Shown here one piece after another: positions 13,505 to 32,784 of a DNA stretch of 64,000 bases. The translations under genes and the position numbers were made by a program. This DNA comes from Nitrosopumilaceae archaeon. Lineage in GTDB: Archaea > Thermoproteota > Nitrososphaeria > Nitrososphaerales > Nitrosopumilaceae. A model generated the notes under the pieces. That model saw only the letters and a list, made by a program, of their open reading frames with translations. It searched no databases and was not told where the DNA came from. The stretch is taken from contig OZ242365.1 in the NCBI GenBank assembly GCA_965208905.1, positions 1,408,001 to 1,472,000 of the forward strand, in the 5' to 3' direction. The first letter of the stretch is position 1, and the number at the start of each line of letters is the position of its first letter.

Positions 13505-13668
13505 GGACGTTGCTAATCTATTTTTCAATATCTGTCGTATGTTGATGAGTATTATTAAGATTTTATAGTACATTTGTTGAAGATGTCAAAAACTGGTGCG
13601 CATACACGGCTAACTCATCTGCCTGCGACCAAATATAATGCTAAATACACTTTTGAAAATAGTATGTC

Positions 13669-16326
13669 GTGAATGTAATTTGGATGGCATTGTTGTTATC
13701 TTGGGCCGCCTTTGTATCGGCATCATATGCAGATGTGTCGTATCATACAAGCGGATTTCATGCGTTGGATGGCCCAACCGGCATAGATACAATCACCATA
13801 CAAAACCACACATATGCCATAGTGAGTAGTTCTGTTGATGGGGCAGTCCAGATACTAAATATAACCAACCCCTATACACCACAGCCTGTATACAGTATAT
13901 CTGGCCAATACCTAATTGATGCGCAGGATGTTGTCGCAGTAAACGTGGGAGATGAAGCATACATCATGATAGCTGGTGCCAAGACCGGTTCAATACAGAT
14001 TATAGATATTACCAATCCACAAGCACCCCTAATCATAGGAGACATTGCAGGATTTGAGACGTCAGATGACATGGGAGAGTTAGATCACATAGATGGCAGT
14101 CGTGCCGTTGATGACACATCTGGATTTGAGGCGCTGGGGGGTGTTAACAGTCTCGAACTTTTGTCACTGCCAGGCAACTATACATATGTGGTAGCTTCGG
14201 GCCCCGCAGATGATGCAATTCAGATAATGGATGTAACATTTTATGATTATCCGGGCCACATCTTTGACTACAATTGCATGTATGCACCCCGACCAGTAGC
14301 CAGCATATTTGATGGAGAGTATGATACAATATTAGATGGTGCATGGAGTACGCTTCCCATCAAAAAGTGGGACCGGGAGTACATACTTGCAGTGGGATCA
14401 AGCAGCTACATATCGGTTTTAGACGTAAGCCACATAACCACACCACATACGGACTTGCGCCCTTGTGATGACCCGCGCAGGAGCGGAACGTATCAGGATG
14501 GCAGTACTGCAGATTCATCTTCAGTACCACCATACACAGGGAGTTCATCCTTGTTTGGACCCCAGCCAATAGTTAGCATAACCAATAGTACAGCAGGGTT
14601 TGAGTCTTTATACAGCATAAACAAGATGGTTGCCATTACACATACAGATGATAACACAATACCAACGCGAGTCTACGAGGATATAGTACAAAGGACAGAG
14701 GGTACAAATGATACAACCTCCCTTAAACGAGGACCAACCCACATAATAGCGATTAGTGATAACTCTGTTCAAGTTATCAGAGTTAACAGCACATATGCAC
14801 ATTACCTAAACTCCACACATGATACGATACGACTGCCTCCCAAGACAGACATACCGGACATCACACTGACATCCGTGCATACAATATACGATGATACCGA
14901 CGGGTTTGAGGCGCTGGGCGGTGCTCGCGACATCAAACTTGCGTATATGAACAATCATACTATTGGCGTTATAGCAGGATTTGATGATGATGCACTACAG
15001 ATAATAGACTTTACCATACCCGAAGACCCTAAGCCCATATCCAGCATATTTGATGGCATAAATGGGTTTGAGGCCTTGGGTGGCGTATATGGTATCGAAA
15101 TTACAGATATTGGTGATAATACATACGTCATAGCCGCAAGTCATCTTGATGATGGTGTGCAGATAATAGACATTACCAATCCGTACAAGCCATTACCGGT
15201 ATCCGGCGTGTTTGATCACAGTTACTTTGACTCTTTGGGAGGGGCCAACCATGTCACCATATCGGAGATATCAGATAGATTATACGCCATGGTAACTGCC
15301 TCTTCAGACAACTCCCTTCAAATAATTGACTTTACCTCCCCTGAGTATCCTGTATCGGCTGCCAGCATACGCGATGATGCTGATGGGTTTGAGGCCTTGG
15401 GTGGCGCGCAGGACTTTGTATCAGCTACTATTAAAAATCGCACATATGGAGCCGTTGTGGGCCATTCAGACAATGCAGTCCAGATCATAGACATCACAGT
15501 ACCAAACAATCCAAAGCCCATATCTGCAATATTCGATGATACTGATGGGTTTGAGGCCCTGGGTGGCGCCAACGGCATAGATGCAGTTACAATACATAGG
15601 CACACATATCTTGTAGTGGCCAGCAAGTCAGACAATGCAGTACAGGTAGTCAACATGACCGACCCCGCACATCCCAGGCCTGTATATGCAATATTTGATG
15701 ATACCGATGGGTTTGAGGCCCTGGGTGGCGCCAGCAAGGTACAATGCCACAACACATACTGTCTAGTAACTGCAAACACAGATGATGCCGTCCAGATACT
15801 AAACATTACACAGGATGGTTCCCCGCAGCCGCTTGCAGCCATATTTGATGGCCAAGATGGCTTTAAATCTCTAAAAGATGCCGGCGAGATACAAATTACA
15901 ACCATAAACAGTCAGACATTGGCAGTTGTTACGGCCAGGGGGGATGATGGTTTACAGATTATAGACATAACAAACCCCATATCTCCAAAAGTAGTCTCCA
16001 ACCTGTTCCGTTACACAGAGGGATTTGACTCGCTGAGCGGTATTCGAAATGTAAGCATATACAATGACACATATGCCATTACAGCCAACGGACTAGGCGG
16101 TACTGTATCCATAATAGACATGACATCTCCAGATTCGCCCAAAGTCATATCATCGATAAATTATCATATGTATGGTCTAGGTGACCTGTACGGCGTAACC
16201 GGCATAGACATATACAACAACACCTATGCCGTATTTTCCAGCAAAGACAAGAGCAGTGTCTTAATATTTGATATTGCAGAGCCGTCTTCACCCCGACTGG
16301 TATCTGTGATTAATGATCAAAAATAA
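13669..16326 (+). CDS. Secreted LVIVD-repeat beta-propeller protein
   Basis: Signal peptide; many repeats of DxAVQIIDITxPxxPxPVxxIFDDxDGFEALGGA. Confidence 0.85.
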   Translation: MNVIWMALLLSWAAFVSASYADVSYHTSGFHALDGPTGIDTITIQNHTYAIVSSSVDGAVQILNITNPYTPQPVYSISGQYLIDAQDVVAVNVGDEAYIMIAGAKTGSIQIIDITNPQAPLIIGDIAGFETSDDMGELDHIDGSRAVDDTSGFEALGGVNSLELLSLPGNYTYVVASGPADDAIQIMDVTFYDYPGHIFDYNCMYAPRPVASIFDGEYDTILDGAWSTLPIKKWDREYILAVGSSSYISVLDVSHITTPHTDLRPCDDPRRSGTYQDGSTADSSSVPPYTGSSSLFGPQPIVSITNSTAGFESLYSINKMVAITHTDDNTIPTRVYEDIVQRTEGTNDTTSLKRGPTHIIAISDNSVQVIRVNSTYAHYLNSTHDTIRLPPKTDIPDITLTSVHTIYDDTDGFEALGGARDIKLAYMNNHTIGVIAGFDDDALQIIDFTIPEDPKPISSIFDGINGFEALGGVYGIEITDIGDNTYVIAASHLDDGVQIIDITNPYKPLPVSGVFDHSYFDSLGGANHVTISEISDRLYAMVTASSDNSLQIIDFTSPEYPVSAASIRDDADGFEALGGAQDFVSATIKNRTYGAVVGHSDNAVQIIDITVPNNPKPISAIFDDTDGFEALGGANGIDAVTIHRHTYLVVASKSDNAVQVVNMTDPAHPRPVYAIFDDTDGFEALGGASKVQCHNTYCLVTANTDDAVQILNITQDGSPQPLAAIFDGQDGFKSLKDAGEIQITTINSQTLAVVTARGDDGLQIIDITNPISPKVVSNLFRYTEGFDSLSGIRNVSIYNDTYAITANGLGGTVSIIDMTSPDSPKVISSINYHMYGLGDLYGVTGIDIYNNTYAVFSSKDKSSVLIFDIAEPSSPRLVSVINDQK

Positions 16327-16834
16327 CCACATAATCCACCCATGATGTATAAAGTTCATAACACCATGATGAATCTACATGGCTGGAAGTGGAGTGGCAG
16401 CCTGGCCAGTGTGAAATGATGATCCAAAGTGGACAACTGATCGTAAGATAATGTAGTGAGTCTCGGACATATCCGCCAAGACCACCAAGATACCTAATAT
16501 GTGGTCTTGCAAATATCAAGAGCACGAGTCTGTCGCCAACCTAGGGAAAAATTACATACTCGAATCCACTATCAGTACTGTCTAGGTGCATATTCAACCA
16601 TACATGACTCTGCCAGGATAACGCGCACTTTCATGTTATTGGTTATACCTAACACCTGACTCTAGAACCCAACTCTTGACATGTTTGGCCGTTCCAAACA
16701 CCGCACACTCACAATCTGGATTGATCGAGTTGCTACGGTAGAATCATAAAGCCATTCAGACATCCAATTCTCAAATTTGCAGCAATACCGGCCCACCTAC
16801 AGTATTTATTAATATAATCAGGTAAACAATCCTA

Positions 16835-18566: not shown

Positions 18567-19778
18567 ATGTTTGGTTTTACATTTAAATCTAAAAATAAAA
18601 ATAAACCCAAGTCAAAATATCTCATTGAATTTAGATTCTCAGGTTATGCCAAACGCACCATCAAAGATCTACAATCAGCAATCTCAAGGAACTTTCCGAT
18701 TTCGTCTCGTAGAAGGTATGTGCCGCATATTACACTAGTCGGGCCGCTATACACCAGAGATGCCAAAAGGATGATCACCGAGGTTCAAAACGTGATCAAG
18801 CAGCAACGTACTACCCCCACATTCCAAATAGATGGTTTTGGTGTGTTCGAAGATAGGGCAATATTTGTTAAAATCACACCATCGCCGGAGTTGATCCAAC
18901 TACGCAAAGAGATCATAGAACGATTAGATGGATTTTGTGAACTAGGGGAGTATGATCGTGGTACGTACAATCCGCATGCTACACTACTACTGAATACAGA
19001 TTTACAAAAAGGTAGACAAGACTATCAATTCAACAAGATACTAAAGTATCTTGACAGTTGGAAGGTGCCAAGCATGAAACAAGGTGTGTTGCGTATAACA
19101 ATACTGAACAGTCATGGCAAGATCGCATGTGAATACGACCTGATACTCAAAAAACTTCTTGACCGTCAGGATGCACTTGATAGCGATATGCGCAAAAAAA
19201 CATTGGACCAATGGCGTAAGCAAAATTCCCCCATAACACAACAGTACTCGGATCCTGTTGTTGAGAATAACCGTACATTTGTGGTAAGTGATCTTCATTT
19301 TGACCATGACAACATAATACGATTCTGTAACCGGCCTTTCCAATCGGTACGCGATATGAACCAAACAATGGTAGACAACTGGAACAAGACTGTAGACTAC
19401 AATGACAGGGTTTACTATCTAGGTGACATGACCTATGGCCGGCAGAGGAGGCCCATTGATTTCTGGCTCTCAAAACTGAACGGAAATATCCTGTTTATAC
19501 GAGGTAACCACGACACCGATATCATCACAAGAGCGACTGTTTTAAAAGACAAGTTCCATATAATGTACAAAGAATATGAATTTCTATTGATGCATGATCC
19601 ATACAGACCAAAACACTATGACGGTTGGATCATTCATGGTGATAAGCACAACAATAGTCCTGATAAGTATCCACATGTTTGTTATGAAAACAAGACCATC
19701 AACGTATGTGCAGAGTTTACTGAATACACGCCCCTGAATCTAAATAACATAGTCACATCCATCACCGCTCGCAGATAG
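18567..19778 (+). CDS. 2H phosphoesterase (2'-5' RNA ligase family) fused to a calcineurin-like metallophosphoesterase
   Basis: Two HxT motifs (PHITL, PHATL); SDLHFDH, LGD, RGNHD, MH, IHGDKH. Confidence 0.88.
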   Translation: MFGFTFKSKNKNKPKSKYLIEFRFSGYAKRTIKDLQSAISRNFPISSRRRYVPHITLVGPLYTRDAKRMITEVQNVIKQQRTTPTFQIDGFGVFEDRAIFVKITPSPELIQLRKEIIERLDGFCELGEYDRGTYNPHATLLLNTDLQKGRQDYQFNKILKYLDSWKVPSMKQGVLRITILNSHGKIACEYDLILKKLLDRQDALDSDMRKKTLDQWRKQNSPITQQYSDPVVENNRTFVVSDLHFDHDNIIRFCNRPFQSVRDMNQTMVDNWNKTVDYNDRVYYLGDMTYGRQRRPIDFWLSKLNGNILFIRGNHDTDIITRATVLKDKFHIMYKEYEFLLMHDPYRPKHYDGWIIHGDKHNNSPDKYPHVCYENKTINVCAEFTEYTPLNLNNIVTSITARR

Positions 19779-20036
19779 ACTACCTACAAAAGTGCTTAAC
19801 GATAAACCGTCCAGCCACGAACTGGCAATGGAAGAGATCTGTTAACTAGTCGCATGTACACATTGTGCATATCCCAAAGTTACTAACTACTCTAGTAAGG
19901 GTAGTTCTGATTCACATGCTTCCTTTCCAACACCTATATCAAAATCCATGCGGTTGTTAAAGCCGACAAGCTTGTAAATCTTCCACGATGTATGGTAGTA
20001 AATTTTATACGTGTATACAAAATTTATCACGATATA

Positions 20037-20939
20037 ATGTTGTTTTCAATACAAGGCAAAAGACTCAACAGAATAAGAGAAATAGGTTTTGAGTTAGAAT
20101 CAGAGCTGCAACGCCTAATAGAAAACAACCTAGAATCCATACTAGAGATCAGTTTTGTAAAAAACGAGATGAAAGTGAGAAACTTTCGCATCGATACGGT
20201 TGGATTTGATCCGGACTCTAGGTCCTTTGTGATTGTAGAGTATAAACGGGACAAAAACCAATCTATAATAGATCAGGGCATGGCATACGTGTCACTACTG
20301 CTGGAAAACAAGGCAGAATTCATACTTGCGTATAATGAAAAATTTCAAAAGCCTATACGAAAGGAAGACATAGATTGGACATCATCAAGAATTGTTTTTA
20401 TCGCCAAATCGTTTACCGAGCATCAAAAACAGGCATCGGGGTTCAAGGATCTGCCCATAGAGCTTTATGAGATAAAACATTACGAAAACAAAACCATACT
20501 GTGTAATTCGGTAACCACAAAAAACACAGAATCAATTAAAACTATACGTAAGAAACCAAACGACAGAATCAATAAGGAGATAAGAACATACACTGAAGAA
20601 GATCATCTAGCAAGGGCGGCCCCGGAAATAAAACAGATTTACGTAGAAATCAAACAGATCATGGAATCTTTGTATGATGACATGCAGGTTATTCCAAAAA
20701 AATTGGCGATAACGTTCAAAGCAGAACATAAGTTTGCTTGGGTTGTTTTACGCAAGAATGCTATTGATGTCTATCTCAAAGCCAAAGTAGACCGTCTAGA
20801 TGATTCCAAAAGAATTCTACAGGATGTCACCAATATCGGCCACTGGGGCGGAGGCGACTCACGGATAAGAATTGCAACGACCTCAGAGTTACCATATGTG
20901 CGTGGCCTGATTGAACAAGCCTACACTGAATTCAAGTGA
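20037..20939 (+). CDS. PD-(D/E)xK nuclease-like N-terminus plus DUF5655-type C-terminal domain protein
   Basis: E...RIDT...IVEYK...Q...Y nuclease motif; C-terminal DVTNIGHWGGGD. Confidence 0.75.
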   Translation: MLFSIQGKRLNRIREIGFELESELQRLIENNLESILEISFVKNEMKVRNFRIDTVGFDPDSRSFVIVEYKRDKNQSIIDQGMAYVSLLLENKAEFILAYNEKFQKPIRKEDIDWTSSRIVFIAKSFTEHQKQASGFKDLPIELYEIKHYENKTILCNSVTTKNTESIKTIRKKPNDRINKEIRTYTEEDHLARAAPEIKQIYVEIKQIMESLYDDMQVIPKKLAITFKAEHKFAWVVLRKNAIDVYLKAKVDRLDDSKRILQDVTNIGHWGGGDSRIRIATTSELPYVRGLIEQAYTEFK

Positions 20940-20956
20940 CAAATAGGCAGGTTCAC

Positions 20957-22255
20957 ATGAATCCAAAACATAAAACAAAATTCAAGAAGGTGAAATGGCT
21001 CTTTGGCAGGGAGATTGAGATTCCAGAAGGATGGAAATGGGAAAAACTAGAAAATAATTCTACATTAAAGGGTAGAATTGGTTGGCAAGGATTAACAACT
21101 GCCGAATACCTAAAACATGGTAAGTATTATCTCGTAACAGGAACTGATTTTAAAAACGGTTCCATTTATTGGGAAAATTGTGTTTATGTAAATAAAGACC
21201 GTTACTCTCAAGATTCTAACATTCAACTAAAGAAAAATGATGTCTTAGTTACAAAAGATGGAACGATAGGAAAAGTTGCCTTTGTTTATATTCTTTCAAA
21301 ACCTGCAACACTAAACAGCGGAGTTTTTGTCATTCGTCCAATTAACAAAACGTATTTTCCTTTATTCCTATACTATGTTTTACGCTCAGATTATTTTGAG
21401 AAGTTTCTAGATAGACTCAAAGCAGGATCAACCATTAATCATCTATATCAAAAAGATTTTGTTAATTTTAAATTTCCGATCCCATCGAGATCAGAACAAA
21501 CCCGTATTGCATCAATCCTTGGCGGAGTTGATGCATGTATAGAGGCCACACAGAAAATAATTGAAAAATATGAGAGATTAAAGAAAGGCCTAATGCAGCA
21601 TCTTTTAAGTCACGGGATTAATCATACCAAATTCAAAAAAGTGAAATGGTATTATAACAAAGAAATAAAAATTCCATATAAGTGGGAGTGGAGTGAATTG
21701 GGTAACGAAGGGAGCCTTTCTTCAGGTGCCACACCTAAACGCGATCACCCTAAATATTACAATGGTAATATTTTATGGGTTTCAAGTGGAGAATTAAATT
21801 ACAATTTAATTACAACGACTAACGAATTAATAACTGTCCTCGGTCTACAAAAAACTAATTTAAAAATTCACTCAGAAGGTACTTTTCTTTTTGCAATTAC
21901 TGGATTAGAAGCAAGAGGAACGAGAGGGCGGTGCGCAATCTTGGGAAGACCTGCCACTATTAACCAATCCTGTATGGCTTTTTATAATTCTTCATTAGAT
22001 GTTAAATTTTTATTTTACTATTTTTTAGCATTTGGAGAAAAAATTATTTTTGCAACAGCACAAGGAACAAAACAACAAAGTTTAAATTTAGAAATATCTA
22101 AGAAAATCAAAATTCCTATTCCGTCTTTCTCAGAACAACAAAAGATTGCATCAATCCTGTCAGGAGTTGATGCAATTCAAAATCTGTTTTGGCCTATAAA
22201 AATATGTGTAGGATTAGTAATGTTTTTAATACTTTTAAGAGTAGTAAAACTATGA
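20957..22255 (+). CDS. hsdS: Type I R-M specificity subunit, copy 1 (two TRDs, C-terminal conserved helix missing)
   Basis: IPEGW, EQTRIASIL...LKKGLMQHLL, second TRD ending EQQKIASILSGVDA, then an unrelated tail. Confidence 0.9.
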   Translation: MNPKHKTKFKKVKWLFGREIEIPEGWKWEKLENNSTLKGRIGWQGLTTAEYLKHGKYYLVTGTDFKNGSIYWENCVYVNKDRYSQDSNIQLKKNDVLVTKDGTIGKVAFVYILSKPATLNSGVFVIRPINKTYFPLFLYYVLRSDYFEKFLDRLKAGSTINHLYQKDFVNFKFPIPSRSEQTRIASILGGVDACIEATQKIIEKYERLKKGLMQHLLSHGINHTKFKKVKWYYNKEIKIPYKWEWSELGNEGSLSSGATPKRDHPKYYNGNILWVSSGELNYNLITTTNELITVLGLQKTNLKIHSEGTFLFAITGLEARGTRGRCAILGRPATINQSCMAFYNSSLDVKFLFYYFLAFGEKIIFATAQGTKQQSLNLEISKKIKIPIPSFSEQQKIASILSGVDAIQNLFWPIKICVGLVMFLILLRVVKL

Positions 22256-22464
22256 GTACAATCGTACAGAAAAAGACGTATGCAGTGATAATTGCAAAAG
22301 ATCTTGAAGAAGGAGGATTTGTCGGTACGTGTGATGAACTGCATGCAGTTTCAGAAGGAGATACATTTGGGGAGATCGTAGAAAATATGAAAGAAGCAAT
22401 GGAGTTAGCGGCCGAAGAATCTGGAAATCCAACTAACTTCAATATGTTAGTAGTAGAATGCTAA
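22252..22464 (+). CDS. hicB: HicB-family antitoxin (short form)
   Basis: YAVII...GGFVG...SEGDTFGEIVENMKEAMEL; ATGA overlap with the hsdS stop. Confidence 0.85.
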   Translation: MSTIVQKKTYAVIIAKDLEEGGFVGTCDELHAVSEGDTFGEIVENMKEAMELAAEESGNPTNFNMLVVEC

Positions 22465-22700
22465 TGTCAAAGTTTCCAAGTGTGTCAGGTAATCAAATGA
22501 CAAAATATCTTCAAAGTAAGGGGTTCGCCATAACAAAGAGAAGAGGAAGTCATGTAACATTAAGATACAAAAATATTTTTACAGTTATACCTTTGGGTAG
22601 TAAAAGGCTGAAGATCAGAACTCAGTTTTCCATACTACTGTATGCTGGTATTAGTAAAGAAGAATTTGTTAATGACTATGACAGTGGGCTGGTAGCATAA
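22464..22700 (+). CDS. hicA: HicA-family toxin
   Basis: KFPSVSG...L..KGF...RRGSH motif; overlaps the hicB stop. Confidence 0.88.
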   Translation: MSKFPSVSGNQMTKYLQSKGFAITKRRGSHVTLRYKNIFTVIPLGSKRLKIRTQFSILLYAGISKEEFVNDYDSGLVA

Positions 22701-22757
22701 AGTAGCTGATAACTCTCACTTGCAAGTAGAAATAGAAACTTTTCGATTAATCTATAC

Positions 22758-23678
22758 ATGTCCAAACACACAAATCAAAGAAGTATGATGCTGTTTGAAG
22801 AATCAATAAAATCAAAATACACCAAGCAGAATTACATATCACATCTAAACCAATTCAAAAAGTTTAGCGGTATATCTAATGTAGATCATTGGCTGAATAT
22901 TCCATCAAATGAACTACAAACTGTACTAGAAGATTATGTCATATACTTAAAGCATACTACGAGCCCAAACTCTATCCCATCAAAGCTTAGGGGCATAAGA
23001 CATTTTTTTGTGATGAACCGAATTAAGCTTGACTGGGACATAATTTGTAAGATGTTCCCTCCTAAACAAAAAACTTCTACTTTGAGAGCATACACCACAG
23101 GAGAGGTACAAAAGATGCTTTTGCATACCAAGAACTCAAGAGATAAAGCTCTAATTCACTTCCTGGCATCAACCGGAGCAAGAATCGGAGTGTTTGATCA
23201 CCCGTTGTTAATAAAACATAGACAAAAAATGCCATCAAATTGCACTGCGTTTCTGTTTTATGCAGGAACTGTTGAAGAATATTGGTCATTTCTCACACCG
23301 CAGGCAACTAAGATACTTGATGTCTATCACAACATACGTAAACGCGACGGTGAAACTTTTAAGCCAGACACTCCCATATTTGTAACATCAAAACATAATT
23401 CAACTCAGCTTAGTTGGAGTGGTGCACGCTCTGTAATATATAGAAATATTTCTAAAACCACAATAAGACTCAAGCATGGTAATCGTTTTAACGTTCAAGC
23501 AGACCATGGATTTAGAAAAAGATTTAACACCATACTTAAGATGGATAATTCTGTAAACCATAATATAGCAGAAAAATTAATGGGGCATAAAAATGGTCTA
23601 GATGGGGTATATTTTACTCCGTCGCTGGAAGAATTATTTACAGAATTTAAAAAGGTTATAAATCGATTGCAGATCTAA
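22758..23678 (+). CDS. Tyrosine recombinase (site-specific invertase/integrase)
   Basis: Catalytic R (STGARIG), HxxR (HGFRKR), H (LMGH), Y (GVYF). Confidence 0.93.
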   Translation: MSKHTNQRSMMLFEESIKSKYTKQNYISHLNQFKKFSGISNVDHWLNIPSNELQTVLEDYVIYLKHTTSPNSIPSKLRGIRHFFVMNRIKLDWDIICKMFPPKQKTSTLRAYTTGEVQKMLLHTKNSRDKALIHFLASTGARIGVFDHPLLIKHRQKMPSNCTAFLFYAGTVEEYWSFLTPQATKILDVYHNIRKRDGETFKPDTPIFVTSKHNSTQLSWSGARSVIYRNISKTTIRLKHGNRFNVQADHGFRKRFNTILKMDNSVNHNIAEKLMGHKNGLDGVYFTPSLEELFTEFKKVINRLQI

Positions 23679-23700
23679 CTGTGTCGATGAAAATGTGTAA

Positions 23701-25014
23701 TTATATTTTTACTCTAATTTTTCCAGTGAGGAGCTTCTGCATCAATCCTTTCTTTAGACGTTCTAATTTTTTCTTATATTCCTGATTCTTCTGAATGTAT
23801 GCATCAACTCCTGACAGAATTGATGCAATCTTGGTTTGTTCATCTATTTCAGGTATAGGAATTATAAAATTTCTTAGATCTTTTTGTGTGAATAAAGGAA
23901 CTGTAGTACCAGATGTAAATGCTTTACAATATGTTTGAAATGGTTTTGATTTGAAGAACCAATAGAGGAATTCTGGTTTTAACGATTTATCATGCACTCG
24001 AACTGTAACAACATGTGAATTGACTGTAGTTGGTTCTGGAAGTTTTTTTACAAATCCAATTCTTCCAATGTCTCCATCTTTTGCAACTAATACATCTCCA
24101 TTTTGCAATTGAATTTCTGGAGATTCAGAATATCTAAATTGACTCAATCGTTTAATACCTTGTGTAAAATTAATTCCATATAGGATATCTACTAAACTCC
24201 AAACAGATAGCATCAAGAAACCTGATTCAACGTATTCGTCAGAGCGAAGATTTTTCCATCCAATTCTCCCGTGTACTGTGGCAAATATATTCAATCTAGA
24301 TAACTGCCAATCTACAGGAATTTTATAATCTATAAAATGCCTTCCGAAAGTTATCTTTTTGAACTTTATGTGACCAATACCTCTAGTCAGAAGCTGTTGC
24401 ATCAAACCCCTCTTCAGACGTTCTGTTTTCTCTATTACCTTCTGCGTGGATTCAATACATGCGTCAACTCCGCCAAGGATTGATGCAATCTGAACTTGTT
24501 CTGGAAGTGGAGGTATAGGCATAAGTGAATTAGAAACAACGGTACTTGTAATCGCAGGATACGCCATTCCTTCCATTTGTCTAAAATAATTTTCATGAAA
24601 ATAATGACTCTGACAATAATTAAAAAGAAAATGTGGATGACAAGCAGATTTGGATCTTAGAACTGCAAATCCCGTAGAACAAACTATATTTGATTTATCT
24701 ATACTTATTAAAGAAAATGCTTTCAGATATGGGCGCACCAATGATATGATGACATCATCTACTCTTACAATCCTCTGAGCTCTACTAGGACGTTCATATA
24801 ACTGAAATTTTTCTAATTTTGTTGTTTGAAAATTCTTGATGGCTGAGATATCAATATAATCAATTTCATCAAATCTGTAGTCGTTTTGAATCTGTTCAGG
24901 ATTGATTTTTGCAATATCCTGTATGCACAACAGTCTCCACTCTTCTGGAATCTCAATCTCCTTTCCAAAGAGCCATTTTACTTTTTTAAAACTATTGTTC
25001 AGTTTTGTATTCAT
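23701..25014 (-). CDS. hsdS: Type I R-M specificity subunit, copy 2 (complete, downstream of hsdM)
   Basis: Two TRDs, central and C-terminal conserved helices ending LKKGLMQKLLTGKIRV. Confidence 0.95.
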   Translation of the reverse strand: MNTKLNNSFKKVKWLFGKEIEIPEEWRLLCIQDIAKINPEQIQNDYRFDEIDYIDISAIKNFQTTKLEKFQLYERPSRAQRIVRVDDVIISLVRPYLKAFSLISIDKSNIVCSTGFAVLRSKSACHPHFLFNYCQSHYFHENYFRQMEGMAYPAITSTVVSNSLMPIPPLPEQVQIASILGGVDACIESTQKVIEKTERLKRGLMQQLLTRGIGHIKFKKITFGRHFIDYKIPVDWQLSRLNIFATVHGRIGWKNLRSDEYVESGFLMLSVWSLVDILYGINFTQGIKRLSQFRYSESPEIQLQNGDVLVAKDGDIGRIGFVKKLPEPTTVNSHVVTVRVHDKSLKPEFLYWFFKSKPFQTYCKAFTSGTTVPLFTQKDLRNFIIPIPEIDEQTKIASILSGVDAYIQKNQEYKKKLERLKKGLMQKLLTGKIRVKI

Positions 25015-25034
25015 ATGGCCCCCACTACTACAAT

Positions 25035-26516
25035 CTAAACTTTGAACCCCAGTTCCTTCATGTCTTGTATGACCTTGCATTCTAATTCTTTGCGTTCATC
25101 ATTTAACTGATTGAGATCATTTAGAGTCTCCTGAATGTCAATCTCCTCCTCTGGTTCTGATATGTCCACGTATCTTGGGACGTTGAGATTGTACTCGTTC
25201 TCCTTTAATTCTTCAATACCTGCAACATGACAATATCTGTCAACATCTCGAAAGTTACAAAAATGTTTTGCAATCTTGTTAATGTCTTCTTCTCTGAGAT
25301 TGTTCCTATTCTTACCCTCTAGGTATTCTTTTGCCCCATAAATGAAGATTATTTTGTTTTTTCTCTTTGTTGGTTTTTTCTTGTTTAGAACCAAAATGCA
25401 TGCAGGTATGCCGGTACCAAAAAATAGTTTTTCAGGTAGTGCAATGACTCCCTCTATGACATCTTCGTTTATCATGCCTTCCCGTATGTTTTTTTCTGCT
25501 CCTCCACGAAACAAAACCCCCTGCGAGCAGATTATGGCAGCCTGTCCAGTATTATTTAGTTGTGCAAACATATGTTGTATGAATGCAAAGTCTGCTTTGC
25601 CCTTTGCAGGGGGAACTCCAAAACGAAATCTATTGTATGGATCATTTTCTGCGCCCTTGTCATTCCAGTCCATCGAGAACGGAAAATTGGCAAGCACCCT
25701 ATCATATGTCTTGAGAGTGCCCCCCTCTACATGTTGTGGTTTTGCCAACACATCGCCATACTCTATTGTAAAGTTAGGTATTCCATGTAGTACCATGTTC
25801 ATCTTACACATTGCCAAGTTTCCATAGTTGGATTCCTGTCCATCCAGTACCAGATTTCTCGGATCACTGTTTTGTCCCTCTACATGTTTGCGGGACATTA
25901 TCAACATGCCGCCGGATCCGCATGTAGGGTCACATATGCGCATTCCTTCTTTTGGATCTATTATGTTCACTAGTAGATTGACTACCTCCCGCGGCGTAAA
26001 GAATTCGCCACCCTTCTTTTTTGTAGCATCTGCAAACTGCTCGAGTAGATACTCGTATGCGTCACCAAATATGTCCTCTTTTTCAAGATCTGAGTTTCTA
26101 AGTCTGGGTTCGTTAAAATGAGATATGAGATTTGCAAGCTGATCATCAGGATACTTTCTGGGATCCGAATACTTTGTATTTGTCAGAACTCCCTCAAGTC
26201 TTGGATTTGCCAACTCAATCTTTTTGCATAACTCGTCTATCTTCTGACCAACTTTGCGACTCACGCCCTGTAGATTATGCCATCTTGCATCGCCAGGTAC
26301 AAAAAAGTCATGGTAAAATTCCAGATTTGCATCCTCTTCTGACTTGCCTTGACTCAACAATTCTTCTACATTCTCCTCAAACCTGTCATTGAGACGCTTG
26401 AGAAACAACAAAGTCATGACAGGTTGTCTGTACTCTGATGCATCAAGGCTACCACGCAGTATGTCTGATGCCTTCCACAGATGTATCTTGAGTAAGTCTA
26501 GTGTTACATTGCTCAA
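25035..26516 (-). CDS. hsdM: Type I R-M methyltransferase subunit (start uncertain, TTG at 26516 or 26558)
   Basis: LWKASDILRG, GEFFTP, DPTCGSGG, catalytic motif NFPF. Confidence 0.96.
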   Translation of the reverse strand: MSNVTLDLLKIHLWKASDILRGSLDASEYRQPVMTLLFLKRLNDRFEENVEELLSQGKSEEDANLEFYHDFFVPGDARWHNLQGVSRKVGQKIDELCKKIELANPRLEGVLTNTKYSDPRKYPDDQLANLISHFNEPRLRNSDLEKEDIFGDAYEYLLEQFADATKKKGGEFFTPREVVNLLVNIIDPKEGMRICDPTCGSGGMLIMSRKHVEGQNSDPRNLVLDGQESNYGNLAMCKMNMVLHGIPNFTIEYGDVLAKPQHVEGGTLKTYDRVLANFPFSMDWNDKGAENDPYNRFRFGVPPAKGKADFAFIQHMFAQLNNTGQAAIICSQGVLFRGGAEKNIREGMINEDVIEGVIALPEKLFFGTGIPACILVLNKKKPTKRKNKIIFIYGAKEYLEGKNRNNLREEDINKIAKHFCNFRDVDRYCHVAGIEELKENEYNLNVPRYVDISEPEEEIDIQETLNDLNQLNDERKELECKVIQDMKELGFKV

Positions 26517-26611
26517 TATATCTGACAAATAATAGCAGGACTTAATAGAGATTCCCATTTTTCACATGCTTACAATAAAAGACTTTTACAAGTCATTTCA
26601 TATATGACATC

Positions 26612-29599
26612 ATGCATTTTGATGTCGGCAGGGGGGATGAGGCAACAGAATCGGAGCTTCCGGCACTCAAACAGCTTGTTGCCATGGGATACGAATACAA
26701 GACCCAAGCAGAACTAAACAAGACACGACGGGATTTTCGTGAAGTGTTGTTATACGACAGACTGGAAAGGGCAATCAGAAGACTCAATCCAGATATTGAC
26801 GATGATGGAATTAATGATGCCATAATGCAGATAGCAGAGGACTCGTATCCACATCACCTGGACATTATAGACACAAACGAGAGGATCTGGGCCAAGTTGG
26901 TAGAACTCTCAAAATCCAGTGGACTAATTCCCATAGTGGTGACACAGATTTCTGATGGTGAGCCAGTACAGAGAATAGTCAAGGTGTTTGACTTTAAAGA
27001 TCCACAAAACAATGACTTTCTTGTGACCAATCAGTTTCATCTTGATGGATTCAAGCGCCACATACTGCCTGACATAGTTATATTTGTAAACGGAGTCCCA
27101 CTGGTAATAATAGAGTGCAAATCGCCTGCACTGCTTGATCCAATAGTAGAGGCAGTAGAAAAGAAAAACTTTAACAGATATCAGCAAAGAGGCGAGGGAT
27201 ATGAACGGCTCTTCTTTTACAACCATTGCCTTGTGGCCACATGTGGAACCTTGGCAAGAGTGGGAACTGTAGGATCTACTGCAAACCATTTTGCAAGATG
27301 GGCCAAACCACATCCCATGACAGAAGATGATGTGGAGAGCCTCTGCGGCGCAAAGCCACGCGAACAGGAGATCCTTATTGCAGGATTGTTATCCAAGAAA
27401 AATCTGCTTGATCATCTGCAAAACTTTGTACTGTTTGACATCAAGGGAAACCAGCGCGTCAAGATGATTGCAAAACACCAACAATTCCACGCAGTAACGC
27501 AATGCGTAAAAAGACTGAGTGAGGATACAAAAGACAAAGGTGGAGTAATATGGCACACACAAGGATCTGGCAAATCATTTTCCATGTTGTGGTTTGCAAC
27601 ACATCTAAAGTACAAGCTTGACAATCCACCGATTCTCATAATTACTGACAGAAAGCAACTTGACAAGCAGATCCACGAGACATTCAAAAAGTGTGGTTTT
27701 CCAAGCCCGGTCAGGGCAAAGTCCGGACTACATCTTGCCGAACTACTCAAAAACCCGCGCGGAAAGACGATAATGGCTATAATAGACAAATTTGCAACTA
27801 CGGCAGAGCCTTTTACAAAAGATAAAGTGATATGCTTGGTAGATGAAGCACATCGTTCCCAATTCAAGATAAATGCCGAACAGATGAGGGCCGCTATGCC
27901 AAATGCAGTATTTTACGCTTTTACTGGAACCCCAATCACAAAGCCCGAGAAGAACATCTACAAGGTATTTGGACCACTCATTGACAAGTACGGCTTTCAA
28001 GAGTCACAGGCAGATGGTGCAACAATCCCTATAAAATACCAGGGAAGGATGCCACAACTGCATGTAGAAGGAGGGACTACAATAGATGAGATATTTGAAA
28101 GGGTATTCTTTGATATGGATCAGGAACTAAAGGACAAACTCAAGAGGCAGTATGTTACCAAGGGTAAGATTGCCGAGGCCCCATCACGAATAAAACAGAT
28201 AGCACTAGATCTTACAAAGCACTATACAAAGCATATAGAACCCAATGGTTACAAGGCAATGCTTGTCGCACCATCAAGAGAAGCTGCAGTGACATACAAA
28301 AGAGAGCTTGACATGATAAATGCGCCGCCTTCCAAGATAATAATGACATCGTCCTTGGGAGAGAGGGGGAAGGACGATCACAGTTGGGATGACTATTATC
28401 TTTCGACAAAACAACAAGAGCACGAATCAGAGAAATTCAAGAGTCCTGATGATACTACAAAGATTCTCATCGTGGTAGACATGCTACTTGTGGGCTATGA
28501 TGTTCCCATATGCCAAGTATTATATCTGGATCACGGGATAAGGGAGCACAACCTGCTTCAGGCAATAGCCAGAGTGAACAGACCATATGACGATGCAAAG
28601 AAATACGGCCTCATAGTGGATTATTCGGGAATCACAAAAGAGCTGCAGAAAGCCTTGGAAATGTTTGAGAATCAGGATGTGGATGGTGCCTTGACTCCTA
28701 TGGATGAACTTCTTCCCATATTGAAGCAGAGGTACGTTAATGCAATAGCATTCTTTGATGGGGTTGACATGGAAAATACAGGTAAGATAATCGAGCATTT
28801 TGAGTCTGCACATACAAGAGATTCATTTGAATACACTTTCAAGACATTTGCAGCAGCACTTGATTCTGTCTTGCCTAGTAAGGAGGCAGAACCATATATT
28901 GCAGATTTTAAGGCATTAAGCAGGGCACGACAAATAATTAGAACATATTATGAAGGAATAGAATTCAGCATGCACAGCTATGCAAAAAAGATTCAACAAC
29001 TAATAGATGATCACATACACTCCCTTGGCATAAAAGAGCTCATAGAGCCAAGGACCATCACCCATGAGAACTTTCTGGCAACTATACAAGAAAAAATGCC
29101 AGAAAACAAGCGTGCCCAAGCTGCCCTCATACGTAACAAGGCAATTCAGGTAATCGAAGAACTTATGCCAAACAACCCTGCATATTATGAAAGACTGTAC
29201 GAGATGTTGCAGAGAATAATCCAGGATGAAGAGGATAGACGAAAGAAAAATGCAGATTACTTTACAAATCCAGAAGAATATGAAAAAATATACAATAAAG
29301 TACTTGCTGAAGAGGCAGAAAGAAAGAAAATTTTTGGAGATTACGAGGCTACCCAGTTCGAGTTCTCACTGTACAGCAGACTCAATCAAACGCAGAACAG
29401 ACAGGATTCCATTAATATTGTACAAAAGATATACAAAAAGATCAAACCACTTACAGGTCTAGTAGATTACAAGACAAATCCTATGGTCGAGAAAGATATA
29501 AAAAAAATAGTCTACGAGACCCTCAAGCCACACATGAATTATGAACAAATCATGAGTGTTGCAGAAGAGACGATCATGCTGGTGAGGCACAGATTATGA
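26612..29599 (+). CDS. hsdR: Type I R-M restriction subunit
   Basis: PD...ECK nuclease, HTQGSGKS Walker A, DEAH, FTGTP, QAIARVNR. Confidence 0.97.
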   Translation: MHFDVGRGDEATESELPALKQLVAMGYEYKTQAELNKTRRDFREVLLYDRLERAIRRLNPDIDDDGINDAIMQIAEDSYPHHLDIIDTNERIWAKLVELSKSSGLIPIVVTQISDGEPVQRIVKVFDFKDPQNNDFLVTNQFHLDGFKRHILPDIVIFVNGVPLVIIECKSPALLDPIVEAVEKKNFNRYQQRGEGYERLFFYNHCLVATCGTLARVGTVGSTANHFARWAKPHPMTEDDVESLCGAKPREQEILIAGLLSKKNLLDHLQNFVLFDIKGNQRVKMIAKHQQFHAVTQCVKRLSEDTKDKGGVIWHTQGSGKSFSMLWFATHLKYKLDNPPILIITDRKQLDKQIHETFKKCGFPSPVRAKSGLHLAELLKNPRGKTIMAIIDKFATTAEPFTKDKVICLVDEAHRSQFKINAEQMRAAMPNAVFYAFTGTPITKPEKNIYKVFGPLIDKYGFQESQADGATIPIKYQGRMPQLHVEGGTTIDEIFERVFFDMDQELKDKLKRQYVTKGKIAEAPSRIKQIALDLTKHYTKHIEPNGYKAMLVAPSREAAVTYKRELDMINAPPSKIIMTSSLGERGKDDHSWDDYYLSTKQQEHESEKFKSPDDTTKILIVVDMLLVGYDVPICQVLYLDHGIREHNLLQAIARVNRPYDDAKKYGLIVDYSGITKELQKALEMFENQDVDGALTPMDELLPILKQRYVNAIAFFDGVDMENTGKIIEHFESAHTRDSFEYTFKTFAAALDSVLPSKEAEPYIADFKALSRARQIIRTYYEGIEFSMHSYAKKIQQLIDDHIHSLGIKELIEPRTITHENFLATIQEKMPENKRAQAALIRNKAIQVIEELMPNNPAYYERLYEMLQRIIQDEEDRRKKNADYFTNPEEYEKIYNKVLAEEAERKKIFGDYEATQFEFSLYSRLNQTQNRQDSINIVQKIYKKIKPLTGLVDYKTNPMVEKDIKKIVYETLKPHMNYEQIMSVAEETIMLVRHRL

Positions 29600-30126
29600 A
29601 AAAAAACATCCAAGTAATTACTGCCACTATTCCATACAAGATCATACGGAGTGACAGGAGAAGAACATCTGAGATACAGGTAGGGGAGAATGGCATCGAA
29701 GTCAGGGTACCCATGCACAAGAAAGACAACGAGGTCATGGATATGATACATTCCAGACAGCAATGGATCTACAAAAAATATCTAGAATTTCAAACGGAGA
29801 AAAAGGGGTTCAAGAGTAGAGTTGGCAGACCATACATTGAGCGGCGTGTAGATGAGCTTGCAGTAAAGGTAGGTGCCAAACCATCCAAACTATTCATAAG
29901 ACCACTCAAAACAAGATGGGGCAGTGCAACATCAAATGGGACAATCACCATAAACTCTAGACTTTTTAAGGCACCAAAAAGTGTAATCGATTATGTCATA
30001 ATTCACGAGTTGTGCCACCTCAAGATACCGGGGCATTCTAGAACATATTGGAGTCTTGTGGAAATGCACATACCAAACTATATGGAAAAGATAAAATGGC
30101 TGAAAAAATATGGTAGGTTTATATGA
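29596..30126 (+). CDS. YgjP/M48-like zinc metalloprotein associated with Type I R-M
   Basis: RWGS, IDYVIIHELCH, HS..YW; overlaps the hsdR stop. Confidence 0.88.
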   Translation: MKKNIQVITATIPYKIIRSDRRRTSEIQVGENGIEVRVPMHKKDNEVMDMIHSRQQWIYKKYLEFQTEKKGFKSRVGRPYIERRVDELAVKVGAKPSKLFIRPLKTRWGSATSNGTITINSRLFKAPKSVIDYVIIHELCHLKIPGHSRTYWSLVEMHIPNYMEKIKWLKKYGRFI

Positions 30127-30527
30127 TCGTGAATATCATATACACTTTGATCTAACACAAAGGTCTACAAAAACAGATCAAATGATCTAAAAAACAAAAC
30201 ATAGTATTTAGATCATTTAATATGTAAAATTGATTTATAGGTAAATCCACAAAAGAAGGATCTCAAATAAACACTTGCCCAAATTGATATTAAAGTTTAT
30301 GCGTCATAGACGTGCCTGTTGTATAAATAATTATGATCTATCTATACTATTTGTCAAATATTCTAAATGTATAGTAGAATTAGGTGAATTGTAACAGATT
30401 GTATCTGTGAAGACAGGTACGAAAAACCCGAATATTCTAAAAGAGAATTAAATATTTTTCAAAACATGGACTCCAGATATAGTCAGGTGCATAAATAACC
30501 CGACACCTGTTTTACGTCGGTAGGATT

Positions 30528-31652
30528 TTGTCCAAATTTCTGAATAGAATTTTGCGCACCTTAAATCTTATTTCAAGTGATTCGTATATTCGCATGATTT
30601 TTCTTCAGAAATACCTTTTGGCCGGTTGCTTGAAAATTTGTCGTATCTTCGCTTTACCATTACCATTTGGCCGGGTTCAAGAACGGCTACAGACCGTTGG
30701 AGCCGGACTACGACGTCTCAAGATTGACGTTATAGGTGAGGAATACATACACTCTCGAGCAGAAAGTCTGACTAAAATCAAGTGGTATGAAGTTGAACAG
30801 CCAGTAGCGGTTCCGCATATAGACGGAAAGAATGTCGGTAAGGGACGCAAGGTGGACGTTGTCTGGGATTTGGATTCTGACACGCTGTACGTCAAACGTC
30901 TACCGCGACCCATGCTGGCAAACTGTGTGCCGCAAGTAATTGGCGGAATGTTCAACCGTAAAGACATACAAAATGTACTCTATTACAGTTTTGAGCGACG
31001 GCCACAGGACATCCGCGAGTACCTTGAGAATAACTTTAGACTATCCGAGGATGGTGATGAGGGCAGCGTACCCTCACCCAAGCACGAACCCGAATCTACA
31101 CGCACTAGCACCCATACAGAACAAGCCAGTAACACTCCAACAGATAACGATGGTGAGGCATCTACACCCGAGCCTAGATTCAAATCCAGACACACTAGCA
31201 CCCATGCAAAACAGAATAACATTATTACGACTAACAGTAATGATTCGGAATCTGCAGCTGACCGCAAGAAAGTGGAATGTAAGGGGATAGAGTTAGTCAT
31301 AGAGTGTGAGAAGCAACGGAATCCCAACAGCGATATTAAAGATGTGTCCGCTGATAAATGCGGATACGATATTAAATCATCCGACAGATACATAGAAGTA
31401 AAGTCATTCAAGACTACAGGTTCCCCGTCTCTTACAGAGAACGAGTGGAATTTTGCCAAGAATAACAGCTCCAAATGTTGGCTGTATGTAGTGGAGAATA
31501 TATTTGATGATGATATGTCACTTGAAGAGAAAATTATTAGAATAGAAAATCTTGGCGATAAGCAGGTAGAGGTAGCCACTGTCACGTACAAATTTCAAAA
31601 TTGGAATAAAGTACGTAAGGAGGCGAAGCTCGGATTACATTGTAACACCTAA
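30528..31652 (+). CDS. DUF3883 (NOV C-terminal nuclease-like) domain protein, probably an N-terminally truncated remnant; start uncertain
   Basis: C-terminal DVS...GYDIKS..RYIEVKS...LTENEW..A...WLYVV. Confidence 0.65.
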   Translation: MSKFLNRILRTLNLISSDSYIRMIFLQKYLLAGCLKICRIFALPLPFGRVQERLQTVGAGLRRLKIDVIGEEYIHSRAESLTKIKWYEVEQPVAVPHIDGKNVGKGRKVDVVWDLDSDTLYVKRLPRPMLANCVPQVIGGMFNRKDIQNVLYYSFERRPQDIREYLENNFRLSEDGDEGSVPSPKHEPESTRTSTHTEQASNTPTDNDGEASTPEPRFKSRHTSTHAKQNNIITTNSNDSESAADRKKVECKGIELVIECEKQRNPNSDIKDVSADKCGYDIKSSDRYIEVKSFKTTGSPSLTENEWNFAKNNSSKCWLYVVENIFDDDMSLEEKIIRIENLGDKQVEVATVTYKFQNWNKVRKEAKLGLHCNT

Positions 31653-31905
31653 GCAAAGATCATGACGAATTATCAAAAGGTATGCCAAATCCATCAACTG
31701 ATAAAATTGAGAAAATATAGCATGACATTTTACACAGGTTTACCATCATATAATTGTACGTGTTACACAAAATGTATTTGCATTACACGTCTTTACACTC
31801 TATCTTATACCAGTACGTGTAGTGCTACGTAGTTTACACATAATTTTTCATTAAATGTATATGCGCATCACAACTAATTTTAAATGAGTCAACAGAGTAA
31901 CGCGC

Positions 31906-32784
31906 TCACTCAAAGAACGAGTCGTCCACCTCTTTTATGGTGTATGACTCTTTCACTTTGACTCCCAAGTCGTACTCATACATGTATTCGACAAGCTTGG
32001 AACCATCAATCAGTATTATTTTAGATTTTATATCCTTAACATAATCGTACGTCTGTTTCGAAAAGCTGGATGTAGTAATCATGATGCCTTTCTGGGATTT
32101 TTTGCCGTCCAATGATCCAACAAAGCTTTTAACGCGGTCAATCGGCACTGGAGATTTCCATCTTTTAGCTTGAAGATATATGAAACTAAATCCAAGTTTA
32201 TCCTCCCGTATCTCACCATCGATTCCGCCATCGCCTGGCCTCCCAATCACTTGACCATCTATTCCATAATCCATCTTTCTTATGACATCCAACACTAACT
32301 GCTCAAAGAATTTAGGTGAACACCCATTAATTTTTTCAAGAATATCATGCTCCACTGCCTGTTTAATTAACTCATAATTAGTTTCAATTATTTCAGTTGG
32401 TGCTTTAGCATCATCTTCCTCCTTCTCTGACTTTTTTTTACCTGTCGCTTTCTTCCATTCAAGGTATTTGGGTATAACCATAAGGAATTTTCTATCTATT
32501 TTAGCTGGTTTTTTCGAAATGATCATTAATCCGTCTTCGGTGATTGCGTATGTGCGATTTTCACGACTCAAAAGGCCGGCATGTGCAAGTTCAAATAATG
32601 CCCAGGAGGCTCTATTGTAAAGTGTAGTTTGACGACCACTTGGCAATAATTGCTCTTTTTCTTCTTTTGTCAGTGAGAACGACTTGGCCAATTTGTCCAC
32701 TATATCGTAAGTCCTATACTTCTTGTCCTTGTCCTGACATATCTTTAAAATGGGCAGAGTTATGTCGTAAAGACTTGGTATCAT
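31906..32784 (-). CDS. mrr: Mrr-family (Type IV) restriction endonuclease
   Basis: Mrr_N (LPSG...NR..WA...L..AGLL), FFEQLV, GDGGIDG, YLQAKRW, ITTS.F, LIDG. Confidence 0.93.
   Translation of the reverse strand: MIPSLYDITLPILKICQDKDKKYRTYDIVDKLAKSFSLTKEEKEQLLPSGRQTTLYNRASWALFELAHAGLLSRENRTYAITEDGLMIISKKPAKIDRKFLMVIPKYLEWKKATGKKKSEKEEDDAKAPTEIIETNYELIKQAVEHDILEKINGCSPKFFEQLVLDVIRKMDYGIDGQVIGRPGDGGIDGEIREDKLGFSFIYLQAKRWKSPVPIDRVKSFVGSLDGKKSQKGIMITTSSFSKQTYDYVKDIKSKIILIDGSKLVEYMYEYDLGVKVKESYTIKEVDDSFFE

Follow-up and report, generated by a model that had tools for sequence, protein, structure and literature searches.

A Type I restriction-modification locus with a probable hsdS inversion switch in a Nitrosopumilaceae archaeon

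Invertible hsdS loci of Type I restriction-modification (R-M) systems have been well studied in host-associated bacteria, where they serve defence and act as epigenetic switches; going by the main texts of the large surveys, archaea have been left out. In the SpnD39III / cod-ivr system of Streptococcus pneumoniae, as summarised in PMC4948785 and PMC7672463, several opposed hsdS genes neighbour a tyrosine recombinase gene, target recognition domains (TRDs) can be exchanged through inverted repeats located within the coding sequence of hsdS, and one hsdM and one hsdR serve alternative HsdS subunits. Huang et al. 2020 (PMC7672463) describe bacterial loci with clade-2 invertases at which inversion would yield a truncated HsdS, with ON/OFF switching as the outcome. 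Here we describe a locus from a Nitrosopumilaceae archaeon, contained in a stretch of 64,000 nucleotides (nt) of contig OZ242365.1 (the window, to which all coordinates refer unless stated otherwise), in which two opposed hsdS genes carry four short inverted sites within their coding sequences and enclose a tyrosine recombinase gene. We consider it probable that this locus is a Type I R-M system with a site-specific inversion switch (shufflon) driven by the internal tyrosine recombinase. The fuller proposal, that marine ammonia-oxidising Nitrosopumilaceae harbor an actively switching, self-contained cassette in which site spacers act as a register code that blocks deletions and up to four specificities are produced, is decidedly more tentative.

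As far as main texts go, a bacterial-style hsdS switch has not yet been described for archaea. They yielded neither a description of an invertible hsdS locus in archaea nor anything about Nitrosopumilaceae; supplementary tables may list archaeal loci. By its main description, the survey of Milman et al. 2023 (PMC9881135) scanned bacteria only, and we found no mention of archaea in the main text of Atack et al. 2020 (PMC7394358). Chanin et al. (PMC10028968), in the passages that touch on archaea, call archaeal invertons minimally investigated and credit Atack et al. with the suggestion that archaea have systems of this kind. The relevant portions of a thaumarchaeal mobile-element survey describe no hsdS inversion, and a review of archaeal tyrosine recombinases makes no mention of restriction or invertase.

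Paired dif-like sites within two opposed hsdS genes

Signature domains of HsdR, HsdM and HsdS occur together in the locus (Pfam), which identifies it as Type I R-M. Its hsdS genes are opposed, carry inverted repeats within coding sequence and have a recombinase gene (22758-23678) between them, the arrangement by which invertible hsdS loci are recognised. The parts of the locus are as follows.

20957..22255, + strand: hsdS1 (Pfam Methylase_S, E 1.6e-43)
20993..21029, inverted relative to 24942-24978: 5′ homology between the two hsdS genes, 35/37 identity
21508..21535, + strand: site A, outer pair, at the start of hsdS1 helix D1; TGCATCAATCC-TTGGCG-GAGTTGATGCA
22147..22174, + strand: site B, inner pair, at the end of TRD2a; TGCATCAATCC-TGTCAG-GAGTTGATGCA
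22175..22251, + strand: hsdS1 tail and putative hicB promoter region, with a TTTAATA box about 20-25 nt before the hicB ATG
22252..22464, + strand: HicB-like small open reading frame (ORF), 70 residues (weak matches of a profile against PDB and of a structural model)
22458..22700, + strand: hicA-family toxin gene (Pfam HicA_toxin, E 2.8e-6)
22758..23678, + strand: tyrosine recombinase of 306 residues, the proposed invertase (Xer matches below cut-off; catalytic residues)
23701..23799, - strand: D2 (C-terminal) helix module, in single copy, on hsdS2; near-invariant across seven loci
23701..25014, - strand: hsdS2, complete with TRD1b, D1, TRD2b and D2 (Pfam Methylase_S, E 1.8e-32; alignment to hsdS1)
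23800..23827, - strand: site C, inner pair, partner of B; coding strand TGCATCAATTC-TGTCAG-GAGTTGATGCA, one arm difference
24460..24487, - strand: site D, outer pair, partner of A; coding strand TGCATCAATCC-TTGGCG-GAGTTGACGCA, one arm difference
25035..26558, - strand: hsdM (N6_Mtase, E 1.9e-106; HsdM_N, E 3.1e-24)
26612..29599, + strand: hsdR (SWI2_SNF2, E 6.6e-70; HSDR_N, E 1.4e-29; T1R_D3 also matched)

A preliminary description of this DNA had proposed convergent hsdS genes around hicB-hicA and a tyrosine recombinase. The genes, their order and their coordinates held; the name hicB is weakly supported, as this ORF has no Pfam or NCBIfam match. The description's further claim of four different TRDs is correct as to their number and needs qualifying as to their difference, since TRD1 of hsdS1 shares 42% identity with TRD2 of hsdS2.

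The two genes differ at their 3′ ends. From an N-terminal motif, hsdS1 runs through TRD1a, helix D1 and TRD2a to site B and then reads through into a 27-residue non-helical tail, so that D2 is lacking. By comparison, hsdS2 (which starts 20 nt past the hsdM stop and whose reading frame remains open as far as 25080) continues past site C as YIQKNQEYKKKLERLKKGLMQKLLTGKIRVKI, the D2 helix, and is the only one of the two to do so, as had been claimed. HsdS has the layout TRD1-D1-TRD2-D2, and its D1 and D2 helices make an antiparallel coiled coil, according to the structural summary in PMC3874165. In our scheme, an HsdS lacking D2 is presumed to be inactive. We rejected the idea that the non-helical tail is a conserved protein domain: an alignment of nine hsdS tails revealed conservation at the DNA level, comprising a TTTAATA-like box and the hicB start, and this fits a hicB promoter. 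The tail of hsdS1 is therefore read here as a likely hicB promoter region.

Each of the four sites in these genes is a 28-nt dyad, composed of an 11-nt arm, a 6-nt spacer and a second 11-nt arm, with the arms symmetric at 9/11 positions. Pairs A/D and B/C are nested and inverted; each pair is 27/28 identical, with identical spacers within the pair. These sites are our reading of the nested 30-bp inverted repeats reported earlier at 21506/24460 and 22145/23800, which are indeed present. At the protein level they correspond to IASIL(G/S)GVDA, with which the dimerisation helices open: D1 at sites A and D, D2 at sites B and C. A degenerate form of the site pattern matched only four places in the genome, a single contig of 2,214,775 nt with 45.6% GC. 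This genome has two further Type I loci, and the 28-nt site is absent from both.

Similarity between the paired regions is confined to the sites. Identity in the window repeats is limited to about 28-42 nt and has sharp edges. Within the site, both pairs reach 96%; around the inner pair, the 30-nt flanks are 57% identical on the upstream side and 27% on the downstream side. The similarity of hsdS1 to hsdS2 does stop at the inner site, as proposed, ending at the downstream edge of B/C. We also compared codons at residues that have degenerate codons and are conserved between the two window genes. Codons were identical at 18/20 such residues in the sites versus 24/51 in flanking conserved blocks (Fisher one-sided p = 7e-4). 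That synonymous positions are kept in the sites and not in the flanks argues for continuing selection on the DNA itself.

A close counterpart of these sites is the dif core. Dif-type cores have an 11-6-11 layout and are cleaved at the spacer edges, and the window sites share with Xer/dif systems, including archaeal XerA, the 28-nt length, the 11-nt imperfect inverted arms and the 6-nt spacer, as these are given in the descriptions of the core (PMC8371274, PMC2958812). Unlike dif, the window sites lie in coding sequence and form inverted pairs, for which inversion is predicted, and the system is not one of chromosome-dimer resolution.

Tyrosine recombinases require homology between the spacers of the sites that they join. 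Because of this need for matching spacers, A is expected to pair only with D (TTGGCG) and B only with C (TGTCAG). In the mechanism that we propose, the recombinase would bind the four sites, which are written into the IASILxGVDA codons, and catalyse exchange between partners chosen by their spacers. This rule would allow in-register inversions and disfavour deletions and out-of-register products; in particular, the different spacers within one gene would guard against deletion of TRD2. Inversion between B and C would flip a 1.6-kb cassette consisting of the hicB promoter, the HicB-like ORF, hicA, the recombinase gene and the only D2 helix, and would hand D2 from hsdS2 to hsdS1. Since the single D2 helix is what this inversion moves, one complete HsdS is predicted to exist at a time. 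Inversion between A and D would exchange the D1-TRD2 modules, plus whatever follows them, between the genes. The complete subunit could take four states (TRD1b-TRD2b, TRD1a-TRD2a, TRD1a-TRD2b and TRD1b-TRD2a), each working with the one HsdM/HsdR, and the recombinase and the HicA/HicB-like pair would travel inside the cassette with their own promoter. The scheme presumes that hsdS1 is expressed.

Such a switch would depart from the pneumococcal one in several respects. The spare hsdS copies of pneumococcus are not known to carry the 5′ part, whereas both window genes have intact 5′ ends and start codons, and the movable unique part is the C-terminal helix rather than a promoter-linked 5′ part. 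The window repeats are 28-nt dyad cores with pair-specific spacers instead of long repeats; the invertible segment itself contains the recombinase gene together with the HicA/HicB-like pair; and the host is an archaeon. As at the clade-2 loci, which we compared by description only, repeat placement predicts one truncated and one complete HsdS, but in the window truncation of one gene completes the other. The predicted outcome is thus a change of specificity, not simple ON/OFF switching.

A third homology, at the 5′ ends of the two genes, had also been put forward. The match is present, but we rejected it as a third recombination site: it contains no dyad and encodes a conserved HsdS N-terminal motif, FKKVKWLFGxEIEIPE, that is also present before TRD2 in both genes. 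At four other loci, the sole inverted repeats in which this motif takes part are 45-51 nt long and 77-82% identical, and relate a gene-start copy to a mid-gene copy.

Recurrence of the design and its recombinase in the family

The site pattern served as a query against 401 genomes from the family, and the larger loci were retrieved and annotated by tblastn and pattern. The pattern occurs in 17/401 genomes and 6/27 genera; a reversed-pattern control over the same 401 genomes gave 0 among the matches listed. Two inverted hsdS genes together with a recombinase homologue are found in six other genomes from three other genera. These are G010 from a second genus, which has one full hsdS and one single-TRD hsdS; G387, G390, G314 and G318 from a third; and G041 from a fourth.

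The pairing of spacers seen in the window recurs in these loci. Over the six loci that were tallied, the 6-nt spacer is the same in 11/11 inverted pairs matched in register (two central sites or two C-terminal sites), compared with 0/11 out-of-register inverted pairs and 0/11 direct pairs within one gene. Across the eleven pairs, the sites are 93-100% identical; identity in the 30 nt upstream is at most 63% in 10/11, the other being the central pair of the G390 locus (L040) with 83%. Downstream of the six C-terminal pairs, identity over 30 nt is 13-37% in five and 77% in locus L042. In G387, both pairs encode Leu-Ser-Gly, one with the codons CTT TCA GGA and the other with CTG TCG GGA, and the resulting spacers, TTTCAG and TGTCGG, match within each pair. 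Since these synonymous variants co-vary within pairs, protein constraint cannot explain the spacers. In G041, the seventh locus, the central pair also matches (spacer TTTCGG).

A single D2 helix is likewise a property of the whole set. In 7/7 two-hsdS loci, from four genera, D2 is on exactly one hsdS, and the other hsdS (7/7) runs into unrelated sequence that can be aligned between genomes as DNA. Both placements of the helix are found: D2 belongs to the hsdS that lies downstream of hsdM in four loci (the window, G387, G390 and G314) and to the other hsdS in two (G318 and G010). One TRD type, 72-77% identical between genomes, occurs in three settings, namely before the central site (window hsdS1), before a C-terminal site and helix (G041), and before a C-terminal site followed by the tail and hicB (G397). 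Judged by such placements, TRD modules have evidently been shuffled at the sites over evolutionary time. An all-against-all blastn comparison of the fetched loci found no genome pair with the same TRDs in flipped arrangement.

The recombinase itself is a relative, and not a member, of the XerA, XerC and XerD families. These families supply its best matches in NCBIfam (XerA, E 4.7e-12; XerD, E 1.5e-9; XerC, E 4.5e-8), as in comparisons with PDB, and all fall below the equivalog cut-offs (46 versus 220 for XerA, which sets it apart from the Xer/dif systems; 37.6 versus 329.6 for XerD; and 32.8 versus 335 for XerC). Pfam gave sub-threshold matches to Phage_integrase and its SAM-like N-terminal domains, and a profile of ten homologues matched XerA in PDB (5hxy, E 0.003) over the N-terminal half. 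R142, H250, R253, H277 and Y285 are invariant in 10/10 aligned homologues. From their positions, we take R142, H250/R253, H277 and Y285 to be the catalytic Arg, His-x-x-Arg, His and Tyr, the residues by which tyrosine recombinases are recognised. At E <= 1e-5, 1447 proteins match the recombinase; among the 120 relatives listed, none is named and about half have a precomputed PF00589 match. The protein belongs to a large, unnamed, hsdS-associated, Xer-like clade.

We also searched the 401 genomes with the recombinase only, a search that is independent of the site pattern. At E <= 1e-90, the recombinase is found in 28/401 genomes at 36 places, 30 of which were made into loci. Among the 25 loci with at least 55% recombinase identity, hsdS similarity lies within 1.5 kb in 15 and hicA in 13; of the five at 47-51% identity, 0/5 have hsdS or hicA within that distance. 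A metagenome scan with the single recombinase protein gave no match, and one with the recombinase alignment gave 12 loci, none of which has hsdS similarity in the available stretch. A scan of genome contigs returned a single locus, L021.

Some loci have features of their own. In G387 (L039), a perfect 39-nt inverted repeat (locus positions 7872-7910 / 8932-8970, with 1021 nt between the arms) lies between hicA and the recombinase gene, inside the cassette, and could represent either the insertion of a small element or another segment capable of inverting. The hsdM match of the same locus (12767-14343) is split into residues 288-507 and 18-289, and the gene is perhaps frameshifted. G390 (L040) has cassette copies at 5061-5886 and 15295-16550 that flank the R-M genes, with the left recombinase truncated to residues 5-130. 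L045 (G192) has a stand-alone site and D2 stub at 7516-7665, 84% identical to that of the window, next to hsdS of another subfamily; the two hsdS copies of this locus (7603-8461 / 13759-14617) form an 860-nt, 98.4% identical inverted repeat around hsdR-hsdM. L021 shares 99.3% identity with L045 over 4.3 kb, its hsdS region is built differently, and the comparison gives no clear orientation call.

At L076, L090 and L021, the hicB-hicA-recombinase cassette lies beside an hsdS of another subfamily, with the motif KIESIFxxIDA. The helix-start codons of these hsdS genes contain a similar dyad, GAATCAATCTT ... ATTGATGCA, which hints that the recombinase clade may recognise an ATCAAT / ATTGAT core more widely. 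Finally, two contigs of short-read metagenome-assembled genomes (G397 contig C132, L064; G041 contig C43, L049/L069) end in or just after hsdS repeats, the former 31 nt past a central site. Assemblies break in this way at repeats as well as at invertible segments, and such contig ends are by themselves not evidence of switching.

Orientation in metagenomes and competing explanations

Thirteen sequencing runs contain part of the stretch (small shares in X2-X9), and four, all from one sample, contain all of it, making that sample a possible source. We aligned assembled contigs from three of these four runs (X10, X12 and X13) and from X1, a marine metagenome of another study.

The X1 contigs come from a relative with about 95-99% identity to the window over the aligned pieces. 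In X1 record 3, 23493-23815 is joined directly to 24476-24630, and the junction corresponds to the centres of sites C and D. Its product is TRD1b, a site and the D2 helix, that is, a half-size hsdS. In X1 record 1, hsdM (25343 down to 25129, - strand) is followed by 583 unaligned letters and then by 22133-22418 on the + strand, so that site B, the tail and hicB are co-directional with hsdM, the opposite of the cassette orientation in the window. TRD1b is also present in X1 record 4 (5 differences over 341 nt), which diverges from the window past 24987. Stretches that the X1 contigs leave uncovered do not imply that the sequence is absent there. Thus, natural rearrangement breakpoints fall inside the sites in this related strain. 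Half-size or truncated HsdS proteins are described as acting as homodimers (EcoDXXI delta-50 and NgoAV, in the account given in PMC3874165). The single-TRD hsdS genes of G010 and of the X1 strain would resemble them, becoming TRD-plus-helix half-subunits on joining the shared helix; the window genes differ from this in that both have two TRDs and the incomplete one lacks D2 only.

The contigs of the source-like sample give a different picture. X10, X12 and X13 each yielded one 17,438-nt contig across 19500-27000 that passes through all four sites with 0 differences. Because assembly drops rare variants, a single orientation speaks against frequent switching in this sample and not against rare switching; frequent switching there is unlikely. 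Contigs of 33-42 nt at 23800-23841, which have 2-3 differences, occur in all three runs and are deeper than the main contig, were considered as inversion junctions and not read so. They probably stem from other hsdS genes in the metagenome. Two side contigs, of 538 nt and 823 nt, were likewise not read as inversion junctions.

Several observations weigh against a working switch. The X10, X12 and X13 contigs are in the reference orientation only, with no inversion joint at the sites. The X1 contigs perhaps represent several strains, and their TRD complement differs from that of the window; for both reasons, they demonstrate rearrangement at the sites and not a clean inversion of the window locus. 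The spacers of the C-terminal pair in G041 differ by one base (TTTCAG versus TGTCAG), this pair also has an arm change, and at L021 the cassette lies beside its one hsdS without an inverted partner. As for the recombinase, it scores under every curated cut-off (Pfam Phage_integrase, 19.5 versus 27.1 bits), its AlphaFold model is poor (mean predicted local distance difference test (pLDDT) score 53.8), 10/25 of its close loci have no hsdS within 1.5 kb (the hsdS genes of G387 lie just beyond), and copies or fragments of the recombinase gene, 2-3 per genome, neighbour hsdS stubs in several genomes. The switch logic proposed in the preliminary description, in which the inner inversion toggles the helix, the outer inversion swaps TRD2 and four complete HsdS are possible, stands as far as the architecture goes and is strengthened by the comparison with other genomes; the mixed orientations were not seen in the contigs of three runs from one sample.

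The alternative that best accommodates the single orientation is a locked or fossil shufflon that no longer switches, or does so on evolutionary time only, leaving hsdS1 as a silent spare and hsdS2 as the sole working gene. We regard this as unlikely, though it is the most serious of the alternatives. Besides the uniform contigs in 3/3 runs of the source-like sample, the decayed site pair in G041 would be in keeping with it, as would a recent arrival of the locus. The whole R-M locus and its neighbours lie in a low-GC island (19000-34000, with 33-43% GC versus a genome mean of 45.6%), and searches of 9 further genomes from this genus turned up neither site nor recombinase; on these two grounds the island was probably acquired by horizontal transfer. 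A fossil is harder to reconcile with the state of the parts. All four sites are intact, with their 27/28 matches and identical spacers, the recombinase ORF is open and has all catalytic residues, and the excess of codon identity in the sites over the flanks argues for continuing selection.

A second alternative, less probable than the first and in our view improbable, is that the conserved hsdS motif is the target of a small mobile or integrative cassette, the hicBA-recombinase unit, whose recombinase serves its own movement, with hsdS exchange left to host homologous recombination or gene conversion between conserved regions. The unit does carry a toxin-antitoxin-like pair, as mobile elements typically do; the genomes with 2-3 recombinase copies, the second, truncated cassette of G390 and the cassettes beside short hsdS stubs in G023, G400 and G337 are what such an element might leave behind; and the long central repeats of some loci (212 nt at 95% in G390, 263 nt at 83% in G314) would suit homologous exchange. 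However, the sites that bound the cassette, B and C, are inverted, whereas an integrated element is expected to have direct repeats. The sharp-edged identity of the window repeats is also short for homologous recombination, which would not keep an 11-6-11 dyad with pair-specific spacers; these features suit the core of a tyrosine recombinase.

The last alternative, that there is no switch, the repeats reflecting conservation of an HsdS protein motif and hsdS1 being a pseudogene truncated by an insertion, is very improbable: although the sites do encode a conserved HsdS motif and IA-x-IL-type motifs generally precede helices in HsdS proteins, against it stand the conservation of synonymous positions in the sites and not the flanks, the co-varying synonymous spacers of G387, the two other Type I loci of this genome that lack the site, and the one-helix design of 7/7 loci in four genera. 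An inversion switch driven by the internal recombinase is thus the reading that we prefer.

Cassette partners, neighbouring genes and implications

Two small genes would move with the recombinase. The hicA assignment is a marginal pass (Pfam HicA_toxin, 27.8 bits versus a cut-off of 27). For the ORF upstream of it, a profile of ten homologues matched PDB entry 2yzt (E 1.8e-6) and the HicB entries 6u0i (E 0.013) and 6hpb (E 0.079). A structural model (pLDDT 76) searched with Foldseek matched 2yzt, 1wv8 and HicB chains with template modelling (TM) scores of 0.53-0.69 (best E 0.0077), the HicB chains proper scoring 0.53-0.54. At 70 residues, the ORF corresponds to the N-terminal antitoxin-type domain only and has no DNA-binding domain. 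From the profile and the model, it is best called HicB-like, with weak support. Our guess is that the HicA/HicB-like pair stabilises the cassette or regulates the recombinase.

The island and the remainder of the window contain the following further features.

5116-9707, - strand: archaeal rRNA operon, with the large-subunit rRNA gene at 5116-8090 and the small-subunit rRNA gene at 8237-9707, about 11 kb from the R-M island
18567-19778, + strand: ORF of 403 residues upstream of the R-M island (2′-5′ RNA ligase/LigT-like, E 1.1e-16; weak match to calcineurin-like phosphoesterase)
19992..20939, + strand: DUF5655 gene directly upstream of hsdS1 (Pfam DUF5655, E 1.3e-11)
29596..30126, + strand: YgjP-like metallopeptidase gene that overlaps the end of hsdR (Pfam YgjP-like, E 1.4e-40)
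30528-31652, + strand: ORF of 374 residues just downstream of the R-M locus (NOV_C domain, E 5.9e-14)

The archaeal rRNA genes for both subunits, inside the same 64-kb window as the locus, mark this DNA as archaeal. The DUF5655 gene is a possible candidate for the origin of hsdS1 transcription. The N terminus of its product is weakly HsdR_N-like (HSDR_N_2, E 0.0026, below cut-off), and a 33%-identical homologue of the protein is encoded inside the invertible cassette of G387. NOV_C-type domains, as in the 374-residue ORF, occur in defence islands.

The design described here is compact and conserved and offers three testable features: a dif-like core within codons, a spacer pairing rule and one shared helix. 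If active switching is confirmed, this would be the first phase-variable R-M system shown in archaea, and a register code in the spacers would amount to a new way for shufflon sites to choose their partners, in a group of archaea that matters in the environment. A switching locus would also provide a small archaeal recombinase-and-site pair for experiments. For the organisms themselves, it would mean that virus defence and methylation patterns are diversified within populations of ammonia-oxidising archaea.

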